In this document: positions 3,786 through 60,173 of the stretch, one piece after another
How the letters are laid out: every line of letters starts with the position of its first letter
Numbering within the stretch: the first letter of the stretch is position 1
Source: Eledone cirrhosa
Taxonomy: Eukaryota
NCBI GenBank assembly: GCA_964016885.1
Contig: OZ024761.1
Coordinates: 7,254,001 to 7,318,000 of the forward strand
Length of the DNA: 64,000 bases
Direction: 5' to 3'
Program-made: the position numbers and the translations under genes
The notes under the pieces: model-generated
Database searches by the model: none
The model's input: the letters and a program-made list of their open reading frames with translations, nothing else
What the model was told of the DNA's origin: nothing

Positions 3786-3793
3786 TAACTTAC

Positions 3794-5254: not shown

Positions 5255-5400
5255 GTGTACTTTATTTTATCGACTCTGTAAGGATGAAAGGCAAAGCTAA
5301 CCTCAGCGGGATTTGAAATCAGACCATAAAGAGTTATAACTCTATGCTGCAAAGCATGGTGTCTGATGCCATGTTGTCTGACCCTCTACCTATACTGCCA
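5255..5400 (-). mobile_element. tRNA-derived SINE (family A), head expanded into the adjacent array
   Basis: Reverse complement matches the full-length copy at 60400-60585 (B-box, gcctttcatcctt...gtcgataaaataaagtac). Confidence 0.85.
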
Positions 5401-7357: not shown

Positions 7358-8157
7358 GTAAGATATCATGTGAGGTAAAGCCTTTACCATGAAAATACAA
7401 TAGTATATATAGAGTAATGTAAATATTATGTGAGGTATTATGTGAGGTAAAGCCTTTACCATGAAAATACAATAGTATATATAGAGTAATGTGAATGTTA
7501 TGTGAGATATTATGTTAGGTAAAGCCTTTACCATGAAAATACAATAGTATATATAGAGTAATATAAATGTTATGTGAGATATTATGTGAGGTAAAGCCTT
7601 TACCATGAAAATACAATAGTATATATAGAGTAATATAAATGTTATGTGAGATATTATGTGAGGTAAAGCCTTTACCATGAAAATACAATAGTATATATAG
7701 AGTAATATAAATGTTATGCGAGATATTATGAGAGGTAAAGCCTTTACCATGAAAATACAATAGTATATATAGAGTAATATAAATGTTATGTGAGATATTA
7801 TGTGAGGTAAAGCCTTTACCATGAAAATACTATAGTATATATAGAGTAATGTGAATGTTATGTGAGATATTATGTGAGGTAAAGCCTTTACTGTGAAAAT
7901 ACAATAGTATATATAGAGTAATGTGAATGTTATGTAAGATATTATGTGAGGTAAAGCCTTTACTGTGAAAATACAATAGTATATATAGAGTAATGTAAAT
8001 GTTATGTGAGATATTATGTGAGGTAAAGCCTTTACCATGAAAATACAATAGTATATATAGAGTAATGTAAATGTTATGTGAGATATTATGTGAGGTAAAG
8101 CCTTTACCATGAAAATACAATAGTATATATAGAGTAATGTAAATGCTAAAGGGTTAA
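7358..8157 (+). repeat. 72-bp minisatellite ending in the MITE terminus
   Basis: About 11 units, ends gtaaatgctaaagggttaa, the same end as the MITE at 14527-14741. Confidence 0.93.
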
Positions 8158-8370
8158 TAATTGTTTCAACTTTTGGCACAAGGCCAGCAATTACCCAGTA
8201 CATTACTGGTACTTTATTTTATCGACCCCGTAAGATTGAAAGGCAAAGTTAACCTCAGCGGGATTTGAACTCAGACCATAAAGGGACCTAACTATGCTGG
8301 AAAGCATGGCATCCGACCCTCTACCGATACTGCCATGGTGTCTGACGCTCTACCGGTACTGCAAATCCCC
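8158..8370 (-). mobile_element. SINE family A with duplicated head
   Basis: Full SINE body; two tandem copies of the 30-bp head unit at ~8310-8365. Confidence 0.85.
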
Positions 8371-8589
8371 TGCCAACTAAAGGGTTAATAATAATAACTA
8401 TAATTGTTTTTGATTGAGGCACAAGAGCAACAATTTGGGAGAAGGAAAAGTTGCTTATATCAACCCCAGTCTGTTACTGGTACTTTATTTTCTCAATCTT
8501 GTAAAGACGAAACGCAAAGTTAACCTCAATGGAATTTGAACTCAAAAAATAAAGACTCATAGAAGGACTTCTTAGTATGAACAACCTAT

Positions 8590-9874: not shown

Positions 9875-10590
9875 ACTGTTGAAAATATATAGTATAGTAT
9901 TACTGTTGAAAATATATAGTACAGTATTACTGTTAAAAATATATAGTATAGTATTACTGTTAAAAATATATAGTACAGTACTACTGTTGAAAATATATAG
10001 TATAGTATTACTGTTGAAAATATATAGTACAGTATTACTGTTGAAAATGTGTAGTATAGTATTACTGTTGAAAATATATAGTACAGTATTACTGTTGAAA
10101 ATATATAGTACAGTACTACTGTTTAAAATATATAGTACAGTATTACTGTTGAAAATATATAGTATAGTATTACTGTTGAAAATATATAGTACAGTACTAC
10201 TGTTTAAAATATATAGTACAGTATTACTGTTTAAAATATATAGTACAGTATTACTGTTTAAAATATATAGTACAGTATTACTGTTGAAAATATATAGTAC
10301 AGTATTACTGTTAAAAATATATAGTACAGTACTACTGTTGAAAATATATAGTACAGTATTACTGTTGAAAATATATAGTACAGTACTACTGTTGAAAATA
10401 TATAGTATTACTGTTGAAAATATATAGTATAGTATTACTGTTGAAAATATGCAGTATAGTATTACTGTTGAAAATATATAGTACAGTACTACTGTTGAAA
10501 ATATGTAGTATAGTATTACTGTTGAAAATATGCAGTACAGTACTACTGTTGAAAATATATAGTACAGTATTACTGTTGAAAATATGTACA
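9875..10590. repeat. 27-bp minisatellite
   Basis: Unit tactgttgaaaatatatagtacagtat. Confidence 0.95.
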
Positions 10591-10702
10591 CTTTCTTTCT
10601 TGGAAAAAGTTACATCTATGGTGCAAATTTGGTGCTGTTTGGTCCAGCCGTTTTGCCAGAAGTTTGTTACATACGGCTGTCAGCTTTATTAATATAGATA
10701 TA

Positions 10703-11393
10703 CAGTGTACTCCCGGCATTCACAGTCTCGAAATTCGCAGTCCTGGTTATTAGCAGAATTTTCCTGGTTATTAGCAGAATTTTCCTTAGTCCCTAACTAA
10801 TAATTGTTCATGGAAACCACCGTATATTCGCGGAAACGTAAATATCTTCCATGATTTTTTAATGGCTTTTTTCGTGGAAATATATATTTTTTTAACACTA
10901 AATTATTAATAACAATATAATATACCAACAATGTAACAATATAATATAACAATATAATATAATAACAATATAACAGTATAATATAACAATATAATATAAC
11001 AACAATATAACAGTATAATATAACAATATAATATAACAACAATATAACAGTATAATATAACAATATAATATAACAACAATATAACAATATAATATAACAA
11101 TATAATATAACAACAATATAACAGTATAATATAACAATATAATATAACAACAATATTACAGTATAATATAACAATATAATATAACAACAATATAACAATA
11201 TAATATAACAATATACCATATTTGCCTGCCTATTGGATGCCTCTTCACATAAGACTTTCCCTTTTTTATTATATTTTATGTTATATTTTGACATTTATAG
11301 GCATTTTTTATGGACCATGTCCAATATTCGTGGTTTTTCATTCTTCGCAGGTGCTCTAGGAGTGTAACCCTCGCGAATAATAGGGGACAACTG
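10703..11393. mobile_element. Tigger/pogo-like MITE carrying an internal AT-rich array (10910-11215)
   Basis: taCAGtgtactccc...ggggacaaCTG ends; homologous copy without the array at 16731-17022. Confidence 0.65.
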
Positions 11394-11869
11394 TGTGTGT
11401 ATGTATATATATATATATAACGGAGGTGTGGTAAGGAACCAGATGGACCATAACGCACCAGAATACTCAATACTTAGGGTAGTAGAGTGGGTAATAGAAA
11501 AATGTTTGACCCCGACGGCAGAGCTCAAGCCGTTTCGACGGCTATTTCTGGACTAGCCAAAACATAACGTAAAATATTGGCCAGCAAATATGGTGTATTG
11601 TTATTAATAATTCAGCATTAAAAAGCATGAAAAAATATATATTGCCACAAAAAATCCATTAAAAAATTGTGTAAGGTATTTATGATATTGTGAATATGTG
11701 GTGGTTCCCATGAACAATTATTATTAATTAGGATCTTTGCCTTTCATCCTTACGGGGTCGATAAAATAAAGTACCAGTAATGCACTGGGTAATTGCTGGC
11801 CTTGTGCCTAAAGTAGAAACAATTATTAATTAGGATCTAAGGAAAATTCTGCAAATAACCGGAGGTACA

Positions 11870-12049: not shown

Positions 12050-12289
12050 AGCATATAGACAATATGCCCCACACCCTCCCACTGCAAAAAGTGGTCGTGG
12101 AGGTGCCACGGCAAAAAAGCACCCACCACTCACTGTAAATGAGGTTGGTGTTAGGAAGGGCATCCAGCTGTAGAAATCAAGCCAGAATCAGTTCCTGTAT
12201 GAGCAAGACAAGGTCAGCCGAGCGGACACTGGCCACAACAGGACAACCCGTCTAACCCATGCTAGCATGGAAGAACGGACGTGAAATAG

Positions 12290-12320
<31 letters not shown>

Positions 12321-12540
12321 GCAACGGCAAAAAAGCACCCAGCACTCACTGTAAATGAGGTTGGTGTTAGGAAGGGCATCCAGCTGTAGAAATCAAGCCA
12401 GAATCAGTTCCCGTATGAGCAAGACAAGGTCAGCCGAGCGGACACTGCCCACAACAGGACAACCCGTCTAACCCATGCTAGCACGGAAGAACAGACGTGA
12501 AATAGTGATGATGATGATGATGATGATGACGATGATGAAG
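12050..12540 (+). mobile_element. Two tandem SINE-B/RTE 3' tails ending in (GAT)n
   Basis: ggttggtgttaggaagggcatccagctgtagaaa...cccatgctagc...gatgatgat duplicated. Confidence 0.85.
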
Positions 12541-14181: not shown

Positions 14182-14335
14182 CTGACAAAGAAAAACAAAC
14201 AAAATAGAAAAAAGAATTAGAAAAGAAACTATTTGTATGAATGGCTGATATCATCATCATCAATATCATCATTTAACCCTTTAACAAACCAACCGTATCT
14301 GGCCACTCATACTGATGTTAAGGTATTGTTCTCAT

Positions 14336-14526
14336 AATAAATAATTGTTTCTACTTTTGGCACAAGGCCAGCAATTACCCAGTGCATTACTGGTACTTTA
14401 TTTTATCGACCCCGTAAAGATGAAAGGCAAAGTTAACCTCGGCGAGATTTGAATTAAGAATGGAAAGGGCCGTAACTCTAAGCGTCAAAGCATGGTGTCC
14501 GACTCTCTACCGATACTGCCAATCCA
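14336..14526 (-). mobile_element. SINE family A
   Basis: Full-length match to 60400-60585. Confidence 0.85.
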
Positions 14527-14741
14527 TAACCCTTAGGCATTTAAACCGGCTGTATCCAGCCAGAATTCTCTCACCTCTTTCTGCTCAAACCGGCCATATC
14601 TGGCCACTCATACTGATGTTAAGGTATTGTTCTCAAAAGAAATAATATCCAAATCTCATAGCTTCGATATTATGTGAAATAAAGTGTTTACCATGATAAT
14701 ACAATGGTAAATATAGAGTAATGTAAATGCTAAAGGGTTAA
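14527..14741 (+). mobile_element. ~215-bp piggyBac-type MITE (unexpanded copy)
   Basis: TIRs taacccttaggcattta ... taaatgctaaagggttaa; CCC/GGG ends next to (T)TAA. Confidence 0.75.
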
Positions 14742-16734: not shown

Positions 16735-17022
16735 GTATGGAATATTCATGGAATTTTCCTTAGAACCTAACTAATAATTGTTCGTGGAAACCACCGCATA
16801 TTCTCGGAATCGTAAATATCTTCCGCCATCTTTTTATGGCTTTTTTCATTCTTTTTAACACTAAATTATTAACAACAACAATAAACCGTATTTGCCGGCC
16901 TATATTTTACGTTGTTTTGACATTTATAGACATTTTTATGGACCACGTCCAATATTTGCAGTTTTTCACTCTTCACAGGTGCTCTAGGGACGTAACCCCT
17001 GTGAATACCAGGTGGCAACTGT
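16731..17022. mobile_element. Tigger/pogo-like MITE copy
   Basis: Homologous to 10703-11393; ends ...ggcaactg. Confidence 0.6.
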
Positions 17023-17025
17023 GTA

Positions 17026-17359
17026 TCATCATCATCATCATTTTACGTCCGCTTGTCCCTGCTTGCAAGGGTGGGACGGGAACTGATTCTGGCTTGATTT
17101 CTACAGCTGGATGCCCTTCCTAACACCAACCTCATTTACAGTGCTGGGTGTTTTTTTGCCATGGCACCTCCACCACCACTTTACAGTGGAATGATAGGGA
17201 CCCCAGTCCCTATCATCTCATTTCTACAGCTGAGTAAACTGGAGCAATGTGAAATAAAGTGTCTTGCTCAAGGAAACAACACATCACCCGGTCTGAGAAT
17301 TGAACTCACAACCTTTCGATTGCAAGGACAATACTCTAACCACTAAGCCATGTGCCTCC
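17026..17359 (-). mobile_element. tRNA-derived SINE (family B), full length
   Basis: Head tggcttagtgg (A-box) ... gagttcaattc (B-box), central ccttgagcaagacacttta domain, (GAT)n tail; near-identical copies at 21080-21408 and 59625-59968. Confidence 0.9.
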
Positions 17360-17832: not shown

Positions 17833-17867
17833 ACCAGCAGCAACAGCATGGACTGGACATGGTTGTA

Positions 17868-18152
17868 TAATAATTGTTTCTACTTTTAGCACAAGGCCAG
17901 CAATTACCCCAGTGCATTACTGGTACTGTATTTTATCGACCCAGTAAAGATGAAAGACAAAGTTATTGAACTCAGAACGTAAAGGGCCATAACTCTATGC
18001 TGCAAAGCATAGCCTCTGACGTTCTGCCAATCCACCGCCATTATCGTTAAATAATGTTAACTTTGCCTTTCATCCTTACGGGGTCGATAAAATAAAGTAC
18101 CAGTAATACACTGGAGTAATTGCTGGCCTTGTGCCAAAAGTAGAAACAGTTA
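17868..18152. mobile_element. Inverted pair of SINE-A copies
   Basis: Minus copy 17868-18035, partial plus copy 18055-18152. Confidence 0.75.
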
Positions 18153-22144: not shown

Positions 22145-24790
22145 CACCCCTTCCTTCCTCAGTCGACGTCATCACCCCTTCCTTCCTCAGTCGACATAAT
22201 CACCCCTTCCTTCCTCAGTCGACGTCATCACCCCTTCCTTCTTCAGTCGACGTCATCACCCCTTCCTTCTTCAGTCGACGTCATCACCCCTTCCTTCTTC
22301 AGTCGACGTCATCACCCCTTCCTTCCTCAGTCGACATAATCACCCCTTCCTTCCTCAGTCGACGTCATCACCCCTTCCTTCTTCAGTGAACGTCATCACC
22401 CCTTCCTTCCACAGTCAACGTCATCTCCCCTTCCTTCCTCAGTCGATGTTATCACCCCTTCCTTCCTCAGTCGACGTCATCACACCTTCCTTCCTCAGTC
22501 GATGTTATCACCTCTTCCTTCCACAGTCAACGTCATCACCCCTTCCTTCCTCAGTCGACGTCATCACCCCCTTCCTTCCTCAGTCAACGTCATCACCCCT
22601 TCCTTCCTCAGTTGACGTCATCACCCCTTCCTTCCTCAGTCGACGTCATCACCCCTTCCTTCCTCAGTCGACATAATCACCCCTTCCTTCCTCAGTCGGC
22701 GTCATCACCCCCTCCTTCCTCAGTCGACGTCATCACCCCTTCCTTCTTCAGTCGACGTCATCACCCCTTCCTTCCTCAGTCGACATAATCACCCCTTCCT
22801 TCCTCAGTCGACGTCATCACCCCTTCCTTCCTCAGTCGACGTCATCACCCCTTCCTTCCTCAGTCGACGTCATCACCCCTTCCTTCTTCAGTGAACGTCA
22901 TCACCCCTTCCTTCCACAGTCAACGTCATCTCCCCTTCCTTCCACAGTCGACGTCATCACCCCTTCCTTCCTCAGTCGACGTCATCACCCCTTCCTTCCA
23001 CAGTCAACGTCATCTCCCCTTCCTTCCACAGTCGACGTCATCACCCCTTCCTTCCACAGTCGACGTCATCACCCCTTCCTTCCTCAGTCGACGTCATCAC
23101 CCCTTCCTTCCTCAGTCGACGTCATCACCCCTTCCTTCCTCAGTCGACGTCATCACCCCTTCCTTCCACAGTCAACGTCATCACCCCTTCCTTCCTCAGT
23201 CGACGTCATCACCCCTTCCTTCCTCAGTCGATGTTATCACCTCTTCCTTCCACAGTCAACGTCATCACCCCTGCCTTCCTCAGTCGACGTCATCACCCCT
23301 TCCTTCCTCAGTCGACGTCATCACCCCTTTCTTCCTCAGTCGACGTCATCACCCCTTCCTTCCTCAGTCGACGTCATCACCCCTTCCTTCCACAGTCAAC
23401 GTCATCACCCCTTCCTTCCTCAGTCGACGTCATCACCCCTTCCTTCCTCAGTCGATGTTATCACCCCTTCCTTCCTCAGTCGACGTCATCACCCCTTCCT
23501 TCCTCAGTCGACGTCATCACCCCTTCCTTCGTCAGTCGACGTCATCACCCCTTCCTTCCTCAGTCGACGTCATCACCCCTTCCTTCCTCAGTCGACGTCA
23601 TCACCCCTTCCTTCCTCAGTCAACGTCATCACCCCTTCCTTCCTCAGTCGACGTCATCACCCCTTCCTTCCTCAGTCGACGTCATCACCCCTTCCTTCTT
23701 CAGTGAACGTCATCACCCCTTCCTTCCTCAGTCGACGTCATCACCCCTTCCTTCCTCAGTCGACGTCATCACCCCTTCCTTCCTCAGTCGACGTCATCAC
23801 CCCTTCCTTCCTCAGTCGACGTCATCACCCCTTCCTTCCTCAGTCGACGTCATCACCCCTTCCTTCCTCAGTCAACGTCATCACCCCTTCCTTCCTCAGT
23901 CGACGTCATCACCCCTTCCTTCCTCAGTCGACGTCATCACCCCTTCCTTCCTCAGTCGACGTCATCACCCCTTCCTTCCTCAGTCGACGTCATCACCCCT
24001 TCCTTCCTCAGTCGACGTCATCACCCCTTCCTTCTTCAGTGAACGTCATCACCCCTTCCTTCCTCAGTCGACGTCATCACCCCTTCCTTCCTCAGTCGAC
24101 GTCATCACCCCTTCCTTCCTCAGTCGACGTCATCACCCCTTCCTTCCTCAGTCGACGTCATCACCCCTTCCTTCCTCAGTCGACGTCATCACCCCTTCCT
24201 TCCTCAGTCAACGTCATCACCCCTTCCTTCCTCAGTCGACGTCATCACCCCTTCCTTCCTCAGTCGACGTCATCACCCCTTCCTTCCTCAGTCGACGTCA
24301 TCACCCCTTCCTTCCTCAGTCGACGTCATCACCCCTTCCTTCCTCAGTCAACGTCATCACCCCTTCCTTCCTCAGTCGACGTCATCACCCCTTCCTTCCT
24401 CAGTCGATGTTATCACCCCTTCCTTCCTCAGTCGACGTCATCACCCCTTCCTTCCTCAGTCGACGTCATCACCCCTTCCTTCCTCAGTCGACGTCATCAC
24501 CCCTTCCTTCCTCAGTCGACGTCATCACCCCTTCCTTCCTCAGTCGACGTCATCACCCCTTCCTTCCTCAGTCGACGTCATCACCCCTTCCTTCCTCAGT
24601 CGATGTTATCACCCCTTCCTTCCTCAGTCGACGTCATCACCCCTTCCTTCCTCAGTCGACGTCATCACCCCTTCCTTCCTCAGTCGACGTCATCACCCCT
24701 TCCTTCTTCAGTGAACGTCATCACCCCTTCCTTCCACAGTCAACGTCATCTCCCCTTCCTTCCTCAGTCGATGTTATCACCCCTTCCTCA
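22145..24790. repeat. 28-bp CpG-containing minisatellite
   Basis: Unit gtcgacgtcatcaccccttccttcctca, about 94 copies. Confidence 0.97.
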
Positions 24791-24837
24791 ATCATCTCTA
24801 GTGTGCCGGACAAATACACAAGAGTATTATATATTAG

Positions 24838-25040
24838 TTGGTGGATTGTCAGCATCGGTAGAGTCGGACGCCATGCTTTGCAGCACAGAGTTACGGCCCT
24901 TTATGATCTGAGTCCAAATCCAGCTGAGGTTAACTTTGCCTTTCATCCTTACAGGGTCGATAAAATAAAGTACCAGTCACGCACTGGGGGCGATTTAATC
25001 AACTTTCCCTTCCCCAAATTGCTGGCCTTGTGCCTATATA
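24838..25040 (+). mobile_element. SINE family A
   Basis: Head, B-box-like gagtccaaatccc, conserved body. Confidence 0.85.
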
Positions 25041-25295
25041 ACAAACCATTATCTATTAGTCGATAATAAATGAGCAAAGTATACAATATTTTTTTTTTAA
25101 TTTAAAAATTTCTGACAATTTTTGTGGGGTGCATGGGCCCCTCTAGTAATATGCCTCTGATGGGGCCCACATAGGTAGCACCTCTTTTAGCAGGGAAAAT
25201 GACCTTAAACACTATAGTATAACAATTTTAAGCCTTTCATAATGGTTTCTGATTCAGGCACAAGACCAACAATTTTGAGGAAAAGAGAAAGTCAA

Positions 25296-28200
25296 TCAAC
25301 CCTTTACCATTTACATTACTCTATATATATACTATTGTTAAAGGCTTTACCTCACATAATATCTCACATAGCATTTATATTACTCTATATATACTATTGT
25401 ATTGTCACAGTAAAGGCTTTACCTCACATAATATCTCACATAACATTTACATTACTCTATATATACTATTGTATTGTCACAGTAAAGGCTTTACCTCACA
25501 TAATATCTTACATAACATTTACATTACTCTATATATACTATTGTATTGTCACAGTAAAGGCTTTACCTCACATAATATCTCACATAACATTTACATTACT
25601 CTATATATACTATTGTATTGTCACAGTAAAGGCTTTACCTCACATAATATCTTACATAACATTTACATTACTCTATATATACTATTGTATTGTCACAGTA
25701 AAGGCTTTACCTCACATAATATCTCACATAACATTTACATTACTCTATATATACTATTGTATTGTCACAGTAAAGGCTTTACCTCACATAATATCTTACA
25801 TAACATTTACATTACTCTATATATACTATTGTATTGTCACAGTAAAGGCTTTACCTCACATAATATCTCACATAACATTTACATTACTCTATATATACTA
25901 TTGTATTGTCACAGTAAAGGCTTTACCTCACATAATATCTCACATAGCATTTATATTACTCTATATATACTATTGTATTGTCACAGTAAAGGCTTTACCT
26001 CACATAATATCTTACATAACATTTACATTACTCTATATATACTATTGTATTGTCACAGTAAAGGCTTTACCTCACATAATATCTCACATAACATTTACAT
26101 TACTCTATATATACTATTGTATTGTCACAGTAAAGGCTTTACCTCACATAATATCTCACATAACATTTACATTACTCTATATATACTATTGTATTGTCAC
26201 AGTAAAGGCTTTACCTCACATAATATCTTACATAGCATTTACATTACTCTATATATACTATTGTATTGTCACAGTAAAGGCTTTACCTCACATAATATCT
26301 CACATAACATTTACATTACTCTATATATACTATTGTATTTTCACTGTAAAGGCTTTACCTCACATAATATCTCTCATAACATTTACATTACTCTATATAT
26401 ACTATTGTATTTTCACTGTAAAGGCTTTACCTCACATAATATCTCACATAACATTTACATTGCTCTATATATACTATTGTATTTTCACAGTAAAGGCTTT
26501 ACCTCATATCTCACATAACATTTACATTACTCTATATATACTATTGTATTTTCACAGTAAAGGCTTTACCTCATAATTTCTCACATAACATTTACATTAC
26601 TCTATATATACTATTGTATTTTCACAGTAAAGACTTTACCTCACATAACATTTACATTGCTCTATATATACTATTGTATTTTCACAGTAAAGGCTTTACC
26701 TCATATCTCACATAACATTTACATTACTCTATATATACTATTGTATTGTCACAGTAAAGGCTTTACCTCACATAATATCTCACATAACATTTACATTACT
26801 CTATATATACTATTGTATTTTCACTGTAAAGGCTTTACCTCACATAATATCTCTCATAACATTTACATTACTCTATATATACTATTGTATTTTCACTGTA
26901 AAGGCTTTACCTCACATAATATCTCACATAACATTTACATTGCTCTATATATACTATTGTATTTTCACAGTAAAGGCTTTACCTCATATCTCACATAACA
27001 TTTACATTACTCTATATATACTATTGTATTTTCACAGTAAAGGCTTTACCTCATAATTTCTCACATAACATTTACATTACTCTATATATACTATTGTATT
27101 TTCACTGTAAAGGCTTTACCTCACATAATATCTCACATAACATTTACATTGCTCTATATATACTATTGTATTTTCACAGTAAAGGCTTTACCTCATAATT
27201 TCCCACATAACATTTACATGACTCTATATATACTATTGTATTTTCACAGTAAAGACTTTACCTCACATAACATTTACATTGCTCTATATATACTATTGTA
27301 TTTTCACAGTAAAGGCTTTACCTCATATCTCACATAACATTTACATTACTCTATATATACTATTGTATTTTCACAGTAAAGGCTTTACCTCATAATTTCT
27401 CACATAACATTTACATGACTCTATATATACTATTGTATTTTCACAGTAAAGACTTTACCCTACATAACATTTACATTGCTCTATATATACTATTGTATTT
27501 TCACAGTGAAGGCTTTACCTCATATCTCACATAACATTTACATTACTCTATATATACTATTGTATTTTCACAGTAAAGGCTTTACCTCATAATTTCTCAC
27601 ATAACATTTACATTACTCTATATATACTATTGTATTTTCACAGTAAAGGCTTTACCTCATAATTTCTCACATAACATTTACATTACTCTATATATACTAT
27701 TGTATTTTCACAGTAAAGGCTTTATCTCACATAATATCTCACATAACATTTACATTACTCTATATATACTATTGTATTTTCACAGTAAAGGCTTTATCTC
27801 ACATAATATCTCACATAACATTTACATTACTCTATATATACTATTGTATTTTCACAGTAAAGGCTTTACCTCACATAATATCTCACATAACATTTACATT
27901 ACTCTATATATACTATTGTATTTTCACAGTAAAGGCTTTACCTCACATAACATTTACATTACTCTATATATACTATTGTATTTTCACAGTAAAGGCTTTA
28001 CCTCACATAATATCTCACATAACATTTACATTACTCTATATATACTATTGTATTTTCACAGTAAAGGCTTTACTTCACATAACATCTCACATAACATTTA
28101 CATTACTCTATATATACTATTGTATTTTCACAGTAAAGGCTTTACCTCACATAACATCTCACATAACATTTACATTACTCTATATATACTATTGTATTTT

Positions 28201-28433
28201 CACAGTAAAGGCTTTACTTCACATAATATCTCACATAACATTTACATTACTCTATATATACTATTGTATTTTCATTTAATTATCTCACATAATATCGAAT
28301 CTACGAGATTTTCATATTTATTTTGAGAACAATACCTTAACATCAGTATGAGTGGCCAGTTATGATTGGTTTGAAGAGAAAGAGATGAGAGAATTCTGGC
28401 CGGATGCGGCCGATTTAAATACTAAAGGGTTAA
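25296..28433 (-). mobile_element. piggyBac-type MITE expanded to 3.1 kb by an internal 72-bp array
   Basis: Both termini present (tcaaccctttaccattta / taaatactaaagggttaa); 28272-28433 is the reverse complement of the MITE at 14527; array 25305-28272. Confidence 0.88.
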
Positions 28434-28896
28434 ATCGACTCCAGGGCATTACTGTTACTTTATTGACCCCATAAAGATGAAAAGCAAAGCTAACCTCGAC
28501 GGGAAACTCAGCATGTTATCTGACACTCTACCGATTCTGCCAATCACTCTCTGATTGTGTCTTGTCTGTAATTTAATACAGCCAAAACGGCACATAATGG
28601 GAAAATACTGTCAAAGGAAGTTTCCCCTGAAATGGGAATACAAATGGAATAATACAAGTTTTGCGTAAATTGGAGCACGGGTTCCCAAGATACGGGGTTT
28701 TTCCGAGTACCTTCATAAATAGAGAGAGAGAAAGAGATAGTGGTTGGGAGAGAGTAGATTGAAAGAGAGAGACATGTTTGTGTATATTTTAATTATTTAA
28801 AAATTAGTTTTAAGTGACATGATTTTTTTAAATATCTTTAAGTGAACGTGACCCAACGTGTCATGAGAGGTCTAGTAACATATAAAAACAACTTAC

Positions 28897-29030
28897 CATT
28901 TTCTGTAAAGTCCAATAAACTCAATCCCTAAAAGATGACCTGACACAGAGGTCATACTCATTGTACAAGTCTTGTTAAAAATATAGGAGTCAAATTCATA
29001 AATCTTATTGTATACAGAACGTCCTTCTCT
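28897..29030 (-). CDS. TOP3A: TOP3A coding exon 2
   Basis: tttcAG|REGRSVYNKIYEFDSYIFNKTCTMSMTSVSGHLLGIEFIGLYRK(W)|GTAAGT; TSVSGHL motif; 134 nt. Confidence 0.95.
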
Positions 29031-29749
29031 CTGAAATAAACAAAAAAGAGGTTAGTTTGTTTTTGATTAGAAATGTTGGTGACGTGATAAATACACCCAG
29101 TACACTCTGTAAATGGTTGGCATTGGGAAGGGTAGCCAGCCACAGAAACCAAGCCAAAATCAGTTCTGATTTGGCTTGTCTCACATCAGGACAACTCGTC
29201 TAACCCATGCTAGTGTAGAAAACAGTGATGAGGATTCCACTTTCATCCCAAGCCATGTTACAGACCCTAACACCGTACAACCTCCTCCACCACTTTAGAT
29301 ATCTCCACAAATCTGTGACACAGAAAAGATGTTTAATGATTTATTTATTGATCACTGTAAATTATTATTTGTTATATCTGGGGAGGATCATGTCATCCTA
29401 ATATTGCCAAAAATAGTAAAACACACTCAGTTAAGTTGAGTTTTCGCTTCAGTATATTCTTATAAATAATTTATCTGGTAATCAATGTTTATTATTGATT
29501 CACCAACAATTAAAAATATAAATATAAATATAATTTCCCATTGTGTTTCTATAACGTTTTTTGGTTGTCCCTGTTCGCAAACAATTATTATATATTTTAC
29601 TTAATTGCAGGAATTTCTATAAAACTGTGATCCTTTAAGGTTCAGTACTGGTTGTTCTGCTATATGAAAGGAGAGGATGGTCGACAGGGTATCACTGTCT
29701 CCTGAGTGCCACTTACTTTGCTTTTCACCATTTTGGGAGTTGATAGGGC

Positions 29750-30375
29750 AGTGGGTTGGTAGTATCGGTGGAGAGTCAGATAATATGCTTTGCAGCATAG
29801 AGCTATTGTCCTTTACGTTCAGATCCCACTGAGGTTAGCTTTGCCTTTCATCCTTATAGGATCGATTCACTAAGGTCTGTGCCCTAGGTGGTTGCCTAGT
29901 TAACCTTAATGGTAGCACCAACCCTGCACATATATATTAATACCTATCCTATATCACCATCATTAAATGTATAGAGTTCAAATCTGAGTTCAAATCTGAG
30001 TTCAAATCCGAGTTCAAATCCCGCCGAGGTTGACTTTGCCTTTCATCCTTACGGGGTCGATAAAATAAAGTACCAGTAATGCACTGGGTAATTGCTGGCC
30101 TTGTGCCTAAAGTAGAAACAATTAAATGTATAGATAGTTCCATTTAATGGTGGTGATATAGGATAGGTATTAATATATTTGAGCAGGGTTGGTGGATTGG
30201 CAGTATCGGTAAAGGGTCGGACGCCATGCTTTGCAGCAAAGAGTTACGGCCCTTTATGATCTGAGTTCAAATCCCGCCGAGGTTAACTTAGCCTTTCATC
30301 CTTACGGGGGTCGATTAAATAAAGTACCAGTAATACACTGTGCCAAAAGTAGAAACAATTAAATGTATAGATAGT
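29750..30375 (+). mobile_element. Cluster of three SINE-A copies
   Basis: Copies at ~29750-29865, ~29975-30125 (B-box repeated 4x), ~30188-30375. Confidence 0.8.
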
Positions 30376-31244
30376 TCCACAAGACTGTTACGCAACAAAG
30401 ATCTTTACTCATTTAATTTCTTCTTCTTTGCCCACTTATTCCTGGGAGGGTCCTGGGGACAGAGTCCTCGGAAATGTCTTCCAGAGAGTCCTATCAGAAG
30501 CAACCATCTCTGGACACATTTAATTATAAAAAGGGCCACAGAATTGAGATCCTTTATTGCTCAGTAATATAGCTCTCTGAGTTCTGGGCCCAAAGTGGCT
30601 GCCTAGTTGGACAGAAGATAGAGCCAACCCTGCCCCACACACAAGCTCACAAGGGGAAACTGACCTTAACCAACCCTAACCTTATAAATGCAATGAATCC
30701 AGAGATTTTCATTTTTTCAAACAAGCTCTATTGTCAATCATGAACTCTGTTTAAAATCCACTTTCCCGGCTGGCATGGGTCAAACTATTTTACCCACATT
30801 CCCTATTGGCATGGGTTGGACTATGATACCACTGTATCATTGGAGGGAGCCTGTATGTAGCCACTTGACCTGCTAGAGTTAGCAGTTAAATCTCCTTCGC
30901 ACAGCATTCCTTGCATGTATGGATAGAGCCATAATGCCTGGAGTCGTAGGAGTGCTGTAGTGACATATAGCATGATTTGGGCATTTTTAAAACCCAGCAA
31001 AGTTCATCTCCCCTCCATGTCTGAACACAGCTGATTTCTCTCAGAGGAGGACACACAGAGAGAGATTGATAGAAAGGAAGAATCCACCCCAGTACTACAC
31101 TGGTAACTATTTTTATCTACCTTGAAAGGATGAAAGGCAAAGTTGAGCTCAGCAGGATTTGAACTCAGAGAGCTGGAACGAATACCACAAACTATTTTAT
31201 CCGGCGTTCTAATGCAGTGTTTCTCAATCGGTATTCCCTGGAAC

Positions 31245-34200
31245 CACAGTTCACTCCACCTAATGTCCACCACCACTGATTCACTCCACCTAATGTCCAC
31301 CACCACTGATACACTCCACCTAATGTCCACCACCACTGATTCACTCCACCTAATGTCCACCACCACAGATTCACTCCACCTAATGTCCACCACACCACCA
31401 CAGATTCACTCCACCTAATGTCCACCACACCACCACTGATTCACTCCACCTAATGTCCACCACCACAGATTCACTCCACCTAATGTCCACCACCACAGAT
31501 TCACTCCACCTAATGTCCACCACCACTGATTCACTCCACCTAATGTCCACCACCACAGATTCACTCCACCTAATGTCCACCACCACTGATTCACTCCACC
31601 TAATGTCCACCACACCACCACAGATTCACTCCACCTAATGTCCACCACCACAGATTCACTCCACCTAATGTCCACCACACCACCAGATTCACTCCACCTA
31701 ATGTCCACCACCACAGATTCACTCCACCTAATGTCCACCACCACTGATTCACTCCACCTAATGTCCACCACACCACCACTGATTCACTCCACCTAATGTC
31801 CACCACACCACCACTGATTCACTCCACCTAATGTCCACCACCACAGATTCACTCCACCTAATGTCCACCACCACTGATTCACTCCACCTAATGTCCACCA
31901 CACCACCACAGATTCACTCCACCTAATGTCCACCACCACAGATTCACTCCACCTAATGTCCACCACACCACCACTGATTCACTCCACCTAATGTCCACCA
32001 CCACAGATTCACTCCACCTAATGTCCACCACCACTGATTCACTCCACCTAATGTCCACCACACCACCACTGATTCACTCCACCTAATGTCCACCACACCA
32101 CCACTGATTCACTCCACCTAATGTCCACCACACCACCACAGATTCACTCCACCTAATGTCCACCACACCACCACAGATTCACTCCACCTAATGTCCACCA
32201 CACCACCACAGATTCACTCCACCTAATGTCCACCACCACTGATTCACTCCACCTAATGTCCACCACCACAGTTTCACTCCACCTAATGTCCACCACCACT
32301 GATTCACTCCACCTAATGTCCACCACCACAGATTCACTCCACCTAATGTCCACCACCACAGATTCACTCCACCTAATGTCCACCACCACAGTTTCACTCC
32401 ACCTAATGTCCACCACCACTGATTCACTCCACCTAATGTCCACCACCACAGATTCACTCCACCTAATGTCCACCACCACAGATTCACTCCACCTAATGTC
32501 CACCACCACAGTTTCACTCCACCTAATGTCCACCACCACTGATTCACTCCACCTAATGTCCACCACACCACCACTGATTCACTCCACCTAATGTCCACCA
32601 CACCACCACTGATTCACTCCACCTAATGTCCACCACCACTGATTCACTCCACCTAATGTCCACCACCACCAGATTCACTCCACCTAATGTCCACCACACC
32701 ACCACAGATTCACTCCACCTAATGTCCACCACCACTGATTCACTCCACCTAATGTCCACCACCACTGATTCACTCCACCTAATGTCCACCACCACTGATT
32801 CACTCCACCTAATGTCCACCACCACTGATTCACTCCACCTAATGTCCACCACACCACCACAGATTCACTCCACCTAATGTCCACCACACCACCACTGATT
32901 CACTCCACCTAATGTCCACCACCACAGATTCACTCCACCTAATGTCCACCACCACTGATTCACTCCACCTAATGTCCACCACACCACCACAGATTCACTC
33001 CACCTAATGTCCACCACACCACGACAGATTCACTCCACCTAATGTCCACCACACCACCACTGATTCACTCCACCTAATGTCCACCACACCACCACTGATT
33101 CACTCCACCTAATGTCCACCACCACAGATTCACTCCACCTAATGTCCACCACCACTGATTCACTCCACCTAATGTCCACCACACCACCACAGATTCACTC
33201 CACCTAATGTCCACCACACCACCACTGATTCACTCCACCTAATGTCCACCACACCACCACTGATTCACTCCACCTAATGTCCACCACCACAGATTCACTC
33301 CACCTAATGTCCACCACCACTGATTCACTCCACCTAATGTCCACCACACCACCACAGATTCACTCCACCTAATGTCCACCACACCACCACAGATTCACTC
33401 CACCTAATGTCCACCACACCACCACAGATTCACTCCACCTAATGTCCACCACACCACCACAGATTCACTCCACCTAATGTCCACCACCACAGATTCACTC
33501 CACCTAATGTCCACCACCACAGATTCACTCCACCTAATGTCCACCACACCACCACAGATTCACTCCACCTAATGTCCACCACACCACGACAGATTCACTC
33601 CACCTAATGTCCACCACACCACGACAGATTCACTCCACCTAATGTCCACCACACCACCACAGATTCACTCCACCTAATGTCCACCACACCACGACAGATT
33701 CACTCCACCTAATGTCCACCACCACAGATTCACTCCACCTAATGTCCAACACCACAGATTCACTCCACCTAATGTCCACCACACCACCACAGATTCACTC
33801 CACCTAATGTCCACCACACCACCACAGATTCACTCCACCTAATGTCCACCACCACAGATTCACTCCACCTAATGTCCACCACACCACCACAGATTCACTC
33901 CACCTAATGTCCACCACACCACGACAGATTCACTCCACCTAATGTCCACCACCACAGATTCACTCCACCTAATGTCCACCACCACTGATTCACTCCACCT
34001 AATGTCCACCACACCACCACAGATTCACTCCACCTAATGTCCACCACACCACCACTGATTCACTCCACCTAATGTCCACCACACCACCACTGATTCACTC
34101 CACCTAATGTCCACCACCACAGATTCACTCCACCTAATGTCCACCACACCACCACAGATTCACTCCACCTAATGTCCACCACACCACGACAGATTCACTC

Positions 34201-37200
34201 CACCTAATGTCCACCACACCACCACAGATTCACTCCACCTAATGTCCACCACACCACGACAGATTCACTCCACCTAATGTCCACCACCACAGATTCACTC
34301 CACCTAATGTCCACCACCACAGATTCACTCCACCTAATGTCCACCACACCACCACAGATTCACTCCACCTAATGTCCACCACACCACCACAGATTCACTC
34401 CACCTAATGTCCACCACACCACGACAGATTCACTCCACCTAATGTCCACCACACCACCACAGATTCACTCCACCTAATGTCCACCACACCACGACAGATT
34501 CACTCCACCTAATGTCCACCACCACAGATTCACTCCACCTAATGTCCACCACCACAGATTCACTCCACCTAATGTCCACCACACCACCACAGATTCACTC
34601 CACCTAATGTCCACCACACCACCACAGATTCACTCCACCTAATGTCCACCACCACAGATTCACTCCACCTAATGTCCACCACACCACCACAGATTCACTC
34701 CACCTAATGTCCACCACACCACGACAGATTCACTCCACCTAATGTCCACCACCACAGATTCACTCCACCTAATGTCCACCACACCACCACAGATTCACTC
34801 CACCTAATGTCCACCACACCACCACTGATTCACTCCACCTAATGTCCACCACACCACCACTGATTCACTCCACCTAATGTCCACCACCACAGATTCACTC
34901 CACCTAATGTCCACCACCACTGATTCACTCCACCTAATGTCCACCACACCACCACAGATTCACTCCACCTAATGTCCACCACACCACCACTGATTCACTC
35001 CACCTAATGTCCACCACACCACCACTGATTCACTCCACCTAATGTCCACCACCACTGATTCACTCCACCTAATGTCCACCACACCACCACAGATTCACTC
35101 CACCCAATGTCCACCACACCACCACTGATTCACTCCACCTAATGTCCACCACACCACCACTGATTCACTCCACCTGATGTCCACCACCACAGATTCACTC
35201 CACCTAATGTCCACCACCACTGATTCACTCCACCTAATGTCCACCACACCACCACTGATTCACTCCACCTAATGTCCACCACACCACCACTGATTCACTC
35301 CACCCAATGTCCACCACACCACCACTGATTCACTCCACCCAATGTCCACCACACCACCACTGATTCACTCCACCTAATGTCCACCACCACAGATTCACTC
35401 CACCTAATGTCCACCACACCACCACAGATTCACTCCACCTAATGTCCACCGCACCACCACAGATTCACTCCACCTAATGTCCACCACCACAGATTCACTC
35501 CACCTAATGTCCACCACACCACCACAGATTCACTCCACCTAATGTCCACCACCACAGATTCACTCCACCTAATGTCCACCACACCACCACAGATTCACTC
35601 CACCTAATGTCCACCACCACAGATTCACTCCACCTAATGTCCACCACACCACCACAGATTCACTCCACCTAATGTCCACCACACCACCACAGATTCACTC
35701 CACCTAATGTCCACCACACCACCACTGATTCACTCCACCTAATGTCCACCACACCACCACTGATTCACTCCACCCAATGTCCACCACACCACCACTGATT
35801 CACTCCACCCAATGTCCACCACACCACCACTGATTCACTCCACCTAATGTCCACCACCACAGATTCACTCCACCTAATGTCCACCACACCACCACAGATT
35901 CACTCCACCTAATGTCCACCACCACAGATTCACTCCACCTAATGTCCACCACACCACCACAGATTCACTCCACCTAATGTCCACCACACCACCACAGATT
36001 CACTCCACCTAATGTCCACCACACCACCACAGATTCACTCCACCTAATGTCCACCACACCACCACAGATTCACTCCACCTAATGTCCACCACACCACCAC
36101 AGATTCACTCCACCTAATGTCCACCACACCACCACAGATTCACTCCACCTAATGTCCACCACACCACCACTGATTCACTCCACCTAATGTCCACCACCAT
36201 TGATTCACTCCACCTAATGTCCACCACACCACCACAGATTCACTCCACCTAATGTCCACCACACCACCACAGATTCACTCCACCTAATGTCCACCACACC
36301 ACCACAGATTCACTCCACCTAATGTCCACCACACCACCACAGATTCACTCCACCTAATGTCCACCACACCACCACTGATTCACTCCACCTAATGTCCACC
36401 ACCACTGATTCACTCCACCTAATGTCCACCACACTACCACAGATTCACTCCACCTAATGTCCACCACACCACCACTGATTCACTCCACCTAATGTCCACC
36501 ACACTACCACAGATTCACTCCACCTAATGTCCACCACACTACCACAGATTCACTCCACCTAATGTCCACCACCACAGATTCACTCCACCTAATGTCCACC
36601 ACACCACCACAGATTCACTCCACCTAATGTCCACCACACCACCACAGATTCACTCCACCTAATGTCCACCACACCACCACTGATTCACTCCACCTAATGT
36701 CCACCACCACTGATTCACTCCACCTAATGTCCACCACACTACCACAGATTCACTCCACCTAATGTCCACCACACCACCACAGATTCACTCCACCTAATGT
36801 CCACCACACCACCACTGATTCACTCCACCTAATGTCCACCACACCACCACAGATTCACTCCACCTAATGTCCACCACACCACCACAGATTCACTCCACCT
36901 AATGTCCACCACACCACCACAGATTCACTCCACCTAATGTCCACCACCACAGATTCACTCCACCTAATGTCCACCACCACAGATTCACTCCACCTAATGT
37001 CCACCACACCACCACAGATTCACTCCACCTAATGTCCACCACCACAGATTCACTCCACCTAATGTCCACCACACCACCACTGATTCACTCCACCTAATGT
37101 CCACCACCACTGATTCACTCCACCTAATGTCCACCACACCACCACAGATTCACTCCACCTAATGTCCACCACACCACCACAGATTCACTCCACCTAATGT

Positions 37201-40200
37201 CCACCACACCACCACAGATTCACTCCACCTAATGTCCACTACCACAGATTCACTCCACCTAATGTCCACCACCACAGATTCACTCCACCTAATGTCCACC
37301 ACACCACCACAGATTCACTCCACCTAATGTCCACCACACCACCACTGATTCACCCCACCTAATGTCCACCACACCACCACAGATTCACTCCACCTAATGT
37401 CCACCACACCACCACTGATTCACTCCACCTAATGTCCACCACACCACCACAGATTCACTCCACCTAATGTCCACCACACTACCACTGATTCACTCCACCT
37501 AATGTCCACCACACCACCACAGATTCACTCCACCTAATGTCCACCACACCACCACTGATTCACTCTACCTAATGTCCACCACACTACCACTGATTCACTC
37601 CACCTAATGTCCACCACACCACCACAGATTCACTCCACCTAATGTCCACCACACCACCACTGATTCACTCTACCTAATGTCCACCACACTACCACTGATT
37701 CACTCCACCTAATGTCCACCACACCACCACAGATTCACTCCACCTAATGTCCACCACACCACGACAGATTCACTCCACCTAATGTCCACCACCACAGATT
37801 CACTCCACCTAATGTCCACCACCACAGATTCACTCCACCTAATGTCCACCACACCACCACAGATTCACTCCACCTAATGTCCACCACACCACCACAGATT
37901 CACTCCACCTAATGTCCACCACCACAGATTCACTCCACCTAATGTCCACCACACCACCACAGATTCACTCCACCTAATGTCCACCACCACAGATTCACTC
38001 CACCTAATGTCCACCACACCACCACTGATTCACTCCACCTAATGTCCACCACCACAGATTCACTCCACCTAATGTCCACCACACCACCACAGATTCACTC
38101 CACCTAATGTCCACCACCACAGATTCACTCCACCTAATGTCCACCACACCACCACAGATTCACTCCACCTAATGTCCACCACCACAGATTCACTCCACCT
38201 AATGTCCACCACACCACCACTGATTCACTCCACCTAATGTCCACCACCACAGATTCACTCCACCTAATGTCCACCACACCACCACTGATTCACTCCACCT
38301 AATGTCCACCACACCACCACAGATTCACTCCACCTAATGTCCACCACCACTGATTCACTCCACCTAATGTCCACCACACCACCACTGATTCACTCCACCT
38401 AATGTCCACCACCACAGATTCACTCCACCTAATGTCCACCACCACAGATTCACTCCACCTAATGTCCACCACACCACCACTGATTCACTCCACCTAATGT
38501 CCACCACACCACGACAGATTCACTCCACCTAATGTCCACCACACCACCACAGATTCACTCCACCTAATGTCCACCACCACAGATTCACTCCACCTAATGT
38601 CCACCACCACAGATTCACTCCACCTAATGTCCACCACCACAGATTCACTCCACCTAATGTCCACCACCACAGATTCACTCCACCTAATGTCCACCACCAC
38701 AGATTCACTCCACCTAATGTCCACCACACTACCACAGATTCACTCCACCTAATGTCCACCACACCACCACAGATTCACTCCACCTAATGTCCACCACCAC
38801 AGATTCACTCCACCTAATGTCCACCACACCACCACAGATTCACTCCACCTAATGTCCACCACCACAGATTCACTCCACCTAATGTCCACCACCACAGATT
38901 CACTCCACCTAATGTCCACCACACCACCACAGATTCACTCCACCTAATGTCCACCACACCACCACAGATTCACTCCACCTAATGTCCACCACACCACCAC
39001 AGATTCACTCGACCTAATGTCCACCACACCACCACAGATTCACTCCACCTAATGTCCACCACACCACCACAGATTCACTCCACCTAATGTCCACCACACC
39101 ACCACTGATTCACTCCACCTAATGTCCACCACCATTGATTCACTCCACCTAATGTCCACCACACCACCACAGATTCACTCCACCTAATGTCCACCACACC
39201 ACCACAGATTCACTCCACCTAATGTCCACCACACCACCACAGATTCACTCCACCTAATGTCCACCACACCACCACAGATTCACTCCACCTAATGTCCACC
39301 ACACCACCACAGATTCACTCCACCTAATGTCCACCACACCACCACAGATTCACTCCACCTAATGTCCACCACACCACCACAGATTCACTCCACCTAATGT
39401 CCACCACACCACCACAGATTCACTCCACCTAATGTCCACCACACCACCACAGATTCACTCCACCTAATGTCCACCACACCACCACAGATTCACTCCACCT
39501 AATGTCCACCACACCACCACTGATTCACTCCACCTAATGTCCACCACACCACCACAGATTCACTCCACCTAATGTCCACCACACCACCACTGATTCACTC
39601 CACCTAATGTCCACCACACCACCACAGATTCACTCCACCTAATGTCCACCACCACAGATTCACTCCACCTAATGTCCACCACACCACCACAGATTCACTC
39701 CACCTAATGTCCACCACCACTGATTCACTCCACCTAATGTCCACCACACCACCACTGATTCACTCCACCTAATGTCCACCACCACAGATTCACTCCACCT
39801 AATGTCCACCACCACAGATTCACTCCACCTAATGTCCACCACACCACCACTGATTCACTCCACCTAATGTCCACCACCACTGATTCACTCCACCTAATGT
39901 CCACCACACCACGACAGATTCACTCCACCTAATGTCCACCACACCACCACAGATTCACTCCACTTAATGTCCACCACACCACCACAGATTCACTCCACCT
40001 AATGTCCACCACCACAGATTCACTCCACCTAATGTCCACCACCACAGATTCACTCCACCTAATGTCCACCACCACAGATTCACTCCACCTAATGTCCACC
40101 ACCACAGATTCACTCCACCTAATGTCCACCACCACAGATTCACTCCACCTAATGTCCACCACCACAGATTCACTCCACCTAATGTCCACCACCACAGATT

Positions 40201-41790
40201 CACTCCACCTAATGTCCACCACCACAGATTCACTCCACCTAATGTCCACCACCACAGATTCACTCCACCTAATGTCCACCACACCACCACAGATTCACTC
40301 CACCTAATGTCCACCACACCACCACAGATTCACTCCACCTAATGTCCACCACACCACCACAGATTCACTCCACCTAATGTCCACCACCACAGATTCACTC
40401 CACCTAATGTCCACCACACCACCACAGATTCACTCCACCTAATGTCCACCACACCACCACTCATTCACTCCACCTAATGTCCACCACCACAGATTCACTC
40501 CACCTAATGTCCACCACCACAGATTCACTCCACCTAATGTCCACCACCACAGATTCACTCCACCTAATGTCCACCACCACAGATTCACTCCACCTAATGT
40601 CCACCACCACAGATTCACTCCACCTAATGTCCACCACCACAGATTCACTCCACCTAATGTCCACCACACTACCACAGATTCACTCCACCTAATGTCCACC
40701 ACACCACCACAGATTCACTCCACCTAATGTCCACCACCACAGATTCACTCCACCTAATGTCCACCACACCACCACAGATTCACTCCACCTAATGTCCACC
40801 ACCACAGATTCACTCCACCTAATGTCCACCACCACAGATTCACTCCACCTAATGTCCACCACACCACCACAGATTCACTCCACCTAATGTCCACCACCAT
40901 TGATTCACTCCACCTAATGTCCACCACACCACCACAGATTCACTCCACCTAATGTCCACCACACCACCACAGATTCACTCCACCTAATGTCCACCACACC
41001 ACCACAGATTCACTCCACCTAATGTCCACCACAGATTCACTCCACCTAATGTCCACCACACCACCACTGATTCACTCCACCTAATGTCCACCACCACAGA
41101 TTCACTCCACCTAATGTCCACCACCACTGATTCACTCCACCTAATGTCCACCACCACAGATTCACTCCACCTAATGTCCACCACACCACCACAGATTCAC
41201 TCCACCTAATGTCCACCACACCACCACAGATTCACTCCACCTAATGTCCACCACACCACCACAGATTCACTCCACCTAATGTCCACCACACCACCACAGA
41301 TTCACTCCACCTAATGTCCACCACACCACCACAGATTCACTCGACCTAATGTCCACCACACCACCACAGATTCACTCCACCTAATGTCCACCACACCACC
41401 ACAGATTCACTCCACCTAATGTCCACCACACCACCACTGATTCACTCCACCTAATGTCCACCACCATTGATTCACTCCACCTAATGTCCACCACACCACC
41501 ACAGATTCACTCCACCTAATGTCCACCACACCACCACAGATTCACTCCACCTAATGTCCACCACACCACCACTGATTCACTCCACCTAATGTCCACCACC
41601 ACTGATTCACTCCACCTAATGTCCACCACACTACCACAGATTCACTCCACCTAATGTCCACCACACCACCACTGATTCACTCCACCTAATGTCCACCACC
41701 ACAGATTCACTCCACCTAATGTCCACCACCACTGATTCACTCCACCTAATGTCCACCACCACAGATTCACTCCACCTAATGTCCACCACC
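31245..41790. repeat. 10.5-kb minisatellite of interspersed 30- and 35-bp units (intron 1)
   Basis: gattcactccacctaatgtccacc(acacc)accac(a/t). Confidence 0.98.
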
Positions 41791-43177
41791 AACCGGGTGT
41801 GAACTCTTTGACACCAAAAAGACAATTAAAAATTGTGTGATGTATTTTTAATCTTCAATTGAATAAATGATGTTTTTCCATTACTACATTCATCTGGGGT
41901 TAATACAAATTATTTCTAAGTAAAGTCAACACTCGTGATTAAATTTTAGCTTGTGTAATTTTCCATAATTATTCTTTTATGGCCTTCGTCCGGCCAGCTA
42001 TCCGTCATTAACATTCGATCTGTGGAGGCAAAGAAGTAGCCGGCCCCTGACCTAGACCATCATTGACAATACATTTCAGATAAAGAAAATATCTCGTCTG
42101 ATTTAGACACACACATTATATATATATAATATAGGAAGAGGCTATGTAGCCGGTAAGAGTGTCAGACAACATGAGTTAAGACAATTTGAAATCTTTTCCA
42201 CCATCAATTGTTAAAAAAAACAAGTTAAAATCATTTAGTCGTCTATTGGTAACGTACGTTACACTTTAGTTACATACACACAAATCTACACGTAAATACA
42301 TAAACAGATACAACAGAAGGAAGGAGCTGGTGAAACGCTATAGCGAGGTGGGTTGCGCCTCTTTAGGGTTTACCGGCTACATAGCCTAATCGTATAATAT
42401 ATATAAACGTTAGGGTCAGGGTTAGCTCGGGTGTGAGCGAAACATGCCGAATGAATCCAGTGAATCACATAAGATACTCGTACGTATGTATATTTTCATT
42501 AAAGGAGATCTATTGCTAATGATGCCCAAAACCGAACGTTCAAGAGACAGTAAAGAACCCGACCTGCTAGAAATAGCAGCCATATCGCCCTCAAATCACA
42601 ACAACGTCTTAGGAAAATAATACGTTATATAACGTGATCCTCGTCTTCCAGACACATTAGGTTGAGTACGACCAGAAAACATTTAATAATAGGTCTGGTT
42701 GATTAATCAGACAATAAAAATCGAAACCCTTAAGAAACAATCAGGAAGTCTCTACGTGTTAGATCGACCTGCTAGAAACAGTAGTCAAATCTACTTGTCC
42801 CGTCTTAGAAAAATAACCCTTTGTATATAATGTGACCCTGTCTTCCTTGCACACAAGTAATAAAAAAGGATTATCGCATCTGGAAAGCCGTCTAACGGAG
42901 AACTGCCTGATTAAGGTTGACCGGATCAGGAAACCTGTCATAGGACTCTCGATCAAGGCTGACCTGGCTAAAATATCACACGACTGCTGACCTGTAGCTA
43001 AATAACAACAGGTGAACCATGGGTTCTTCCACATCTGCTACAACAACAGAAGATCACGAATACTGTTGACCCACCTCATTTGACTGAGTCATTAAAAATT
43101 ATTTTGAGAAAAAAACAAAAGATTATCATTATCGTTGATTTTTCAGATGGTGTCCAAGCTGCACTGATTGCACTTAC

Positions 43178-59968: not shown

Positions 59969-60010
59969 AATATATATATATATAATATATATCTATAATA
60001 TATATCTATA

Positions 60011-60048
<38 letters not shown>

Positions 60049-60061
60049 ATATATATATATA

Positions 60062-60106
<45 letters not shown>

Positions 60107-60123: not shown

Positions 60124-60173
<50 letters not shown>

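Follow-up and report, generated by a model that had tools for sequence, protein, structure and literature searches.

A TTAA MITE holding a 72-bp minisatellite between its two ends in a tandem-repeat-rich region of Eledone cirrhosa

Introduction

How does a MITE of 208 bp come to hold a 3-kb tandem array between its own ends? We addressed this question at positions 25296-28433 of a 64,000-nt stretch of Eledone cirrhosa DNA (hereafter the window), where a subterminal 72-base segment of such an element is present 43 times between the element's two ends. Within 21 kb there are an unexpanded monomer, an array with both ends and an array with one end, a snapshot of a transposon becoming a tandem repeat, and with this trio one could test whether such arrays are built by transposition or by local expansion. 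The route from MITE to tandem repeat is already well described, and the element analyzed here is one more case. Repeat annotation will split a family of this kind into 'satellite' and 'MITE' parts. The window is non-coding and rich in SINEs and tandem repeats; the SINEs, we assume, resemble those of octopus.

Results

The expanded element and its unexpanded relative

An unexpanded copy had been placed at 14527-14741 by the initial annotation; the copy is there, and we could narrow it to an element proper of 208 bp. The monomer and the parts of the expanded element are as follows.

14526-14741, plus strand: unexpanded family member; element proper 14530-14737 (208 bp), flanked by ATAA (left) and TTAA (right)
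25296-25299, no strand: target-site copy beside the 3' end of the element, reading TCAA, one letter away from TTAA
25300-25313, minus strand: 14-nt 3' terminal inverted repeat with one mismatch; every unit ends with its inner 6 nt
25308-28274, minus strand: minisatellite of 42 units together with 36 nt from the end of the first unit; higher-order periodicity at 144 and 480 nt
28239-28295, minus strand: first unit, contiguous with the body and shortened by an internal deletion when compared with the other units
28296-28415, minus strand: unamplified MITE body
28416-28429, minus strand: 5' terminal inverted repeat, 14 nt, with one mismatch that is common to ~22% of reads
28430-28433, no strand: TTAA target-site copy, by flank comparison

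The monomer has a 14-nt arm starting with CCCT at both termini, and its inverted repeats (14527-14543 and 14724-14740; the 17-nt arms include target letters) are 88% complementary. It belongs to a minor subfamily, with 12 of 134 body sites off the majority of the reads described below. The same MITE has also left a 5' fragment at 14273-14345, which is without the ~44 nt between its two 20-nt direct repeats, and a lone 3' end at 8377-8388. A 44-nt duplication at that 20-nt repeat is seen in reads (joint 28404->28361).

The expanded element (25300-28429, minus strand) is inverted relative to the monomer and lies between TCAA and TTAA. The description of an inverted copy with its subterminal segment amplified about 40-fold proved accurate: the 43 occurrences comprise one first unit with a deletion and, when split at unit ends, 42 further units (26 of 72 nt, six of 70 nt, five of 67 nt, four of 60 nt and one of 64 nt). 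TRF reported a 72-bp array of 42.0 copies at 25339-28274. BLAST aligned the monomer's first 206 nt with 28432->28236, the 5' part of the expanded copy, at 83.5%, and the last 67 nt of the monomer proved to be colinear with the unit, at 78-88% over the two arrays in the window. Every array unit ends inside the 3' inverted repeat, 6 nt in.

Searching the 64 kb with the 14-nt arm at up to two mismatches gave exactly five matches (14530+, 14724-, 25300+, 28416- and 8140-), all of which sit at expected ends; the expectation from shuffled sequence is 0.2 per 20 kb. Both ends of the expanded copy, which had been called intact, are thus present but altered, with one mismatch per end relative to the monomer's right arm and with target copies that read TCAA at 25296-25299 and TTAA at 28430-28433. 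Of the 134 sites in 28296-28429, the copy has a letter other than the read majority at 10, two of these at a majority of ≥94%, and it carries at least two private body changes in this 134-nt region. We dropped an estimate of insertion age from the 7.5% body difference: at eight of the ten sites the copy agrees with 21-39% of reads, possibly through membership in a subfamily. Nor do we take the long ORFs that cross the array (up to 452 aa) for coding sequence; they would stay open from the 72-nt period because the unit length is a multiple of 3. Rfam had no match in 24700-30500, and a degenerate motif spanning the unit junction and the element end had none in metagenome, genome and viral collections.

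Insertion into the 3' hairpin region of a SINE

Aligning the flanks delimited the interrupted SINE and an empty-site control.

25236-25295, minus strand: 3' part of the interrupted SINE, from the flank alignment
28434-28510, minus strand: remaining part of the interrupted SINE, from the flank alignment
24926-25052, plus strand: intact SINE whose homologous site holds a single TTAA and serves as the empty-site control, from the flank alignment

When the flanks are rejoined, they give a SINE with a single TTAA. These rejoined flanks align across the site to the intact SINE located 250 bp away (25052->24926; 77% over 130 columns, single TTAA) and to 8400-8527 (75% across the site; no TTAA at that copy), the site being spanned by two of the 17 non-self alignments. 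The copy at 43858, offered earlier for comparison, aligns to the rejoined flanks over only 51 nt, and the SINE copy at 24926 is the better empty-site control. The insertion site lies in the SINE's 3' hairpin region, outside its terminal tail. Of the earlier proposal that the element interrupts a SINE tail with duplication of TTAA, the SINE and a TTAA-type duplication (one copy being TCAA) hold, and the tail has to be replaced by the 3' hairpin region.

Classification and known systems

Judged by its TTAA target, 14-nt arm and CCCT terminus, the element can be classed as a piggyBac-type MITE, with a putative autonomous mobiliser. In the available portions of PMC2872659 and PMC5381638, piggyBac elements are characterized by 12-19-bp terminal inverted repeats beginning with CC[C/T]T. 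Here, the monomer and the big copy each have the 14-nt CCCT arm at either terminus. The target duplication, TTAA on the right and TCAA on the left, is matched by an empty site and a homologous SINE with one TTAA. The element is short, non-coding and of high copy number, as seen in the 208-bp monomer and in hundreds of different flanks in reads, and it exists both as a plain MITE (14530-14737) and with an array between its ends (25300-28429). A Kolobok/T2-MITE of the Xmix type, for which the accessible text of PMC6004289 gives a TTAA target and an AGGRR terminus, is ruled out by the CCCT terminus; a MITE of the DTC84/Pearl type is ruled out by the TTAA target, the 43 units and their locus-specific order.

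By analogy, the closest precedent would be Xmix (T2-A1)/Xstir of Xenopus, likewise a high-copy TTAA MITE with an amplified internal segment, and likewise known as plain MITE, array and MITE-array composite (PMC6004289, PMC12628747, in the parts available). Compared by description, Xmix has AGGRR ends of the Kolobok type, whereas the element here has CCCT ends and a subterminal unit that ends inside the inverted repeat. Other systems share single features, as far as the available text of each source goes. First, miDNA4, a Tc1/mariner MITE of Xenopus tropicalis, holds one unit or an array of variable length, and its arrays later lose their ends, as the array at 7358 has lost its 5' half (PMC12628747, PMC9659126); unlike the present element, it belongs to another superfamily and is proposed to have captured an existing repeat, whereas the unit here comes from the MITE itself and takes in part of the MITE's end. 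Second, bivalve MITEs of the DTC84/Pearl type are mollusc elements that likewise serve as a cassette for internal tandem units (PMC3879986), but with an AA target, up to five units, a fixed order of variants and a microsatellite, in contrast to TTAA and 43 units here. Third, the CMITE piggyBac-type MITEs of Acropora corals share the TTAA target, the CC[C/T]T terminus and tandem arrays, the latter being ascribed to slippage; those arrays repeat whole elements, and the one here only a subterminal segment (PMC2872659). The repeat annotation of Octopus vulgaris, as given in part of PMC13282606, includes six recently active piggyBac families. In the literature searched, no paper pairs this end motif with piggyBac, and the family is undescribed among papers on cephalopod or octopus minisatellites and transposons, with PMC12676858 and PMC4824008 contributing nothing further; Repbase, Dfam and the Zenodo library of PMC13282606 may hold it.

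A second array with the same unit junction

Another 72-bp array lies in the window.

7358-8157, plus strand: second array, 11 units, with the same unit junction, a perfect 3' inverted repeat and TTAA

TRF gave 11.0 copies at 7357-8145. The perfect arm and TTAA of this array lie in the tail of another SINE, the 5' half of the MITE is absent from it, and it adjoins a SINE-derived 29-bp array. That array (5367-7357, 69 copies) comes from the 5' part of a SINE and is fused directly to the 72-bp array; the fusion is likely to have removed the 5' half of the MITE. The two 72-bp arrays have one unit junction and the 12-nt form of an internal duplication in common. Their insertion sites differ, with the flanks diverging right at the TTAA, so the junction that the initial annotation took to be shared is indeed found at two loci with different flanks.

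At unit positions 35-36, two units of the second array (7858-8001) have the same letters as the big array, whose position-7 variant is also present in one of the two. Such exchange of letters, between arrays that are 17 kb apart and inverted, would fit a history in which monomers inserted separately and ectopic gene conversion copied the junction between the residents, without transposition of multi-unit copies. We consider this history improbable in view of the likely junction contigs in a second organism and the RAD tandem reads described below, which suggest that the junction is widespread and not local.

Probable growth of the array in place

Units vary in a locus-specific manner. Among full-length units the difference is 2.8% inside the big array (26 units, of which 13 are distinct) and 4.0% inside the 7358 array (10 units), while units from different arrays differ by 5.6%, with no identical unit shared and the closest pair one base apart (permutation p=0.0002 for the effect of locus on unit variants). 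Moreover, an unbiased scan of the big array found exact blocks of 418 nt at lag 144 and of 390 nt at lag 480. Exact higher-order blocks together with locus-specific variants indicate that the array grew or was homogenised at the locus. These zero-difference blocks of ~400 nt would postdate the insertion, since the body (2-10 of 134 sites), the first unit (deleted) and the 3' terminus (two changes) have all been altered.

The big array is made of 22 distinct unit types in an ordered higher-order pattern, which would not be expected from collapse or stutter during assembly. The reads and contigs listed contain none that spans the 278-nt stretch used for read placement or joins the element to the SINE flank, which leaves room for a copy number that is an assembly artefact, a reading that we find scarcely credible given the ordered pattern.

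The initial annotation went further and proposed that an array-bearing MITE subfamily is spreading the minisatellite. The MITE-derived unit and the single junction at two sites bear out part of this proposal; the movement of long arrays does not follow, as only one of the two arrays has both ends. The window contains these two array-bearing loci with different flanks, and the tandem reads of the other runs come without locus context. Transposition with long arrays inside, as the main route of minisatellite spread, would explain why the 3.1-kb array is flanked by both ends and a TTAA-type duplication and why two loci share a unit junction, and size would be no barrier to it, autonomous piggyBacs averaging 2.8 kb in the available part of PMC5381638. 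Against it stand the locus-specific units in exact higher-order blocks, the mutated ends and target copy, the second array without a 5' end, the nearby SINE-derived arrays that grew without any transposon ends, and a RAD junction coverage of at most ~0.2 per 3' end (see below). We therefore regard it as unlikely.

The family in public reads

To place these loci in the family, we used two contig sets (X1 from organism A, X2 from organism B) and two RAD read sets (X5 and X6, both from organism B), which are four of the seven runs listed. Reads were placed on 28203-28480 (278 nt) at 80% likeness. Run X1 covered a share of 0.13 of the stretch and was used only for the records placed. Tabulated values refer to the best-supported entries, beyond which there are a further 51 letter rows, 189 joints and 1,211 loose ends. 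In each run, 27,079-41,823 records were placed among the 12.5-17.6 million examined, and the SINE flank contributed a part of those placed.

Reads leaving the unit end (28239) for the terminal repeat, TTAA and unrelated flanks numbered 6,477 in X5 and 6,963 in X6, and the same exit was seen in 731 (X1) and 456 (X2) contigs, with an agreement of 0.56-0.60. At the 5' end, 358 X2 contigs ran into unrelated flanks (agreement 0.36). Family-wide, the loose-end consensus has TTAA beside the element end. The element is part of a mobile TTAA MITE family that is present in both organisms in high copy number and next to many different sequences.

Depth over the junction bin (28223-28232) was 1,327 and 1,343 in the RAD sets, as an upper bound, versus ~10,000-11,000 over the unit end, which amounts to at most ~0.2 junctions per 3' end in the RAD sample. 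Most of the sampled RAD copies may be unexpanded, a share that may be overstated because fixed cut sites and size selection would probably lead RAD to under-sample long arrays. In the X1 and X2 contigs, the summed depth at the junction bin was 30-45% of the unit-end peak, a figure that is not a copy number. Joints that step back by 72 nt (for example, 382 reads with 58 starts in X5) were dropped as a measure of array number, since reads from monomers can give the same joint owing to the deletion in the first unit of the reference. As evidence of tandem units we kept joints with a long shorter side and the loose ends at 28230 and 28233. True tandem reads are present at the joint 28274->28203, with a shorter side of up to 69 nt (X5) and 72 nt (X6) among the joints listed. 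In organism A, 64 and 78 contigs have unit sequence as loose ends at 28230 and 28233, respectively, and are likely to be junction-bearing.

The arrays had also been said to share diagnostic bases that the monomer lacks. They do differ from the 14527 monomer, at six places within the unit, but most of these letters are not diagnostic of arrays: they are the family majority in reads, from which the monomer stands apart. Ahead of the unit core, the array-type letters form the consensus of 5,416 X6 loose-end reads, four times the junction depth, while the monomer-type ACACT letters occur in 396 of 7,684 and 440 of 7,293 reads (~5-6%). Site 28258 is split 48:52.

In one orientation of X5, 2,175 of 3,982 molecules (about half) end at AATT at 28278. 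We read this AATT as a cut site present in many copies, which points to a 13-nt form of the internal duplication elsewhere in the family; a form of the short internal duplication would therefore predate the array. This bears on the possibility that slippage makes the same 72-nt junction over and over, at a hot spot lying between the start of the unit and the inner limit of the inverted repeat. The breakpoints show a weak similarity (4 of 6 letters), and 3 of the 42 units start with C like the inverted repeat, the rest starting with T. Such a similarity is too short to set one register, and both arrays have the 12-nt internal duplication, whereas reads of other copies point to the 13-nt form. 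Repeated origin is thus very unlikely in our view.

Discussion

Proposed origin of the array

We propose, with a probability of roughly 60%, that the junction arose once and spread by transposition in seeds of two or a few units, and that the 3-kb array was built in place afterwards. On this proposal, a 12-13-nt duplication at the unit start would already have been present in many monomers. One copy would then have duplicated the segment that begins with the unit and stops 6 nt inside the 3' inverted repeat, making the 72-nt junction, possibly through gap repair after excision or through slippage at the stem formed by the two ends. A putative piggyBac transposase would have moved multi-unit copies to new TTAA sites, after which slippage and unequal exchange would have lengthened the array at the locus; the 60-, 67- and 70-nt units could be slips within the 12-nt internal repeat. 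With changes in one target copy and in both arms, the expanded copy would by now have lost all or nearly all of its mobility. Weighing against the single-origin proposal, the two arrays are only 17 kb apart, so that conversion between neighbours explains their shared junction equally well, and the size of the seed at insertion is unreadable from the present array.

A bolder scheme would have the transposase itself drive growth, by abortive cutting and gap repair at the 3' end, with kilobase arrays moved whole. Since every unit ends with the inner terminal repeat, units would be added in a fixed register under this scheme. If it were true, the piggyBac-type MITE would be a self-amplifying minisatellite vector in at least two related species, and the 42-kb stretch would be a nursery turning any interspersed repeat into a minisatellite. 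We hold it to be quite unlikely.

A possible zone of regional tandem expansion, and other elements

Sixteen arrays with a period of at least 21 fill 27,801 of the 41,789 bases (66.5%) of 1-41789, and the 29-bp and 46/48-bp units are pieces of SINEs. The region 1-41789 looks like a regional zone of tandem expansion and is possibly subtelomeric. Beyond 41789 the window contains almost only microsatellites.

At 4-3786, a 48-bp array of at least 79 copies starts outside the window; a GGG-TTAA end resembling a piggyBac terminus is present in each of its units, and a version of this end with TCAA closes the array. A second TTAA MITE family may have supplied the end that was amplified here; we do not claim the array for the present family, as only 11 nt are common to it and to the end and flank of the monomer. 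Nor do we claim that a 28-bp array comes from the SINE hairpin, the score being only 18. A second inflated element, at 10780-11400, contains a 37-bp AT-rich array of 8.3 copies; the copy at 16765-17030 has a short stretch in place of this array, and both flanks align. A 10.5-kb array of 30/35-nt units occupies 31243-41789, and the short stretch directly before it presumably resembles a hAT-type MITE end.

Among the SINEs, the copies at 8158-8370, 14340-14525, 17866-17990, 30000-30125 and 48620-48795 share a deletion of the central hairpin and are likely to be a subfamily; several of them stand in inverted pairs or palindromes. A 216-bp tandem duplication of another SINE's 3' end, triplet tail included, lies at 12108-12535. 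An element of ~240 bp at 48792-49033, with short imperfect inverted ends and TTAA on both sides, is possibly another TTAA MITE. Degraded LINE-like 3' fragments, which we take to resemble RTE reverse transcriptase ends, lie at 53400-53800 and 54700-55380, and a 3-kb imperfect (AT)n tract extends over 59970-63044.
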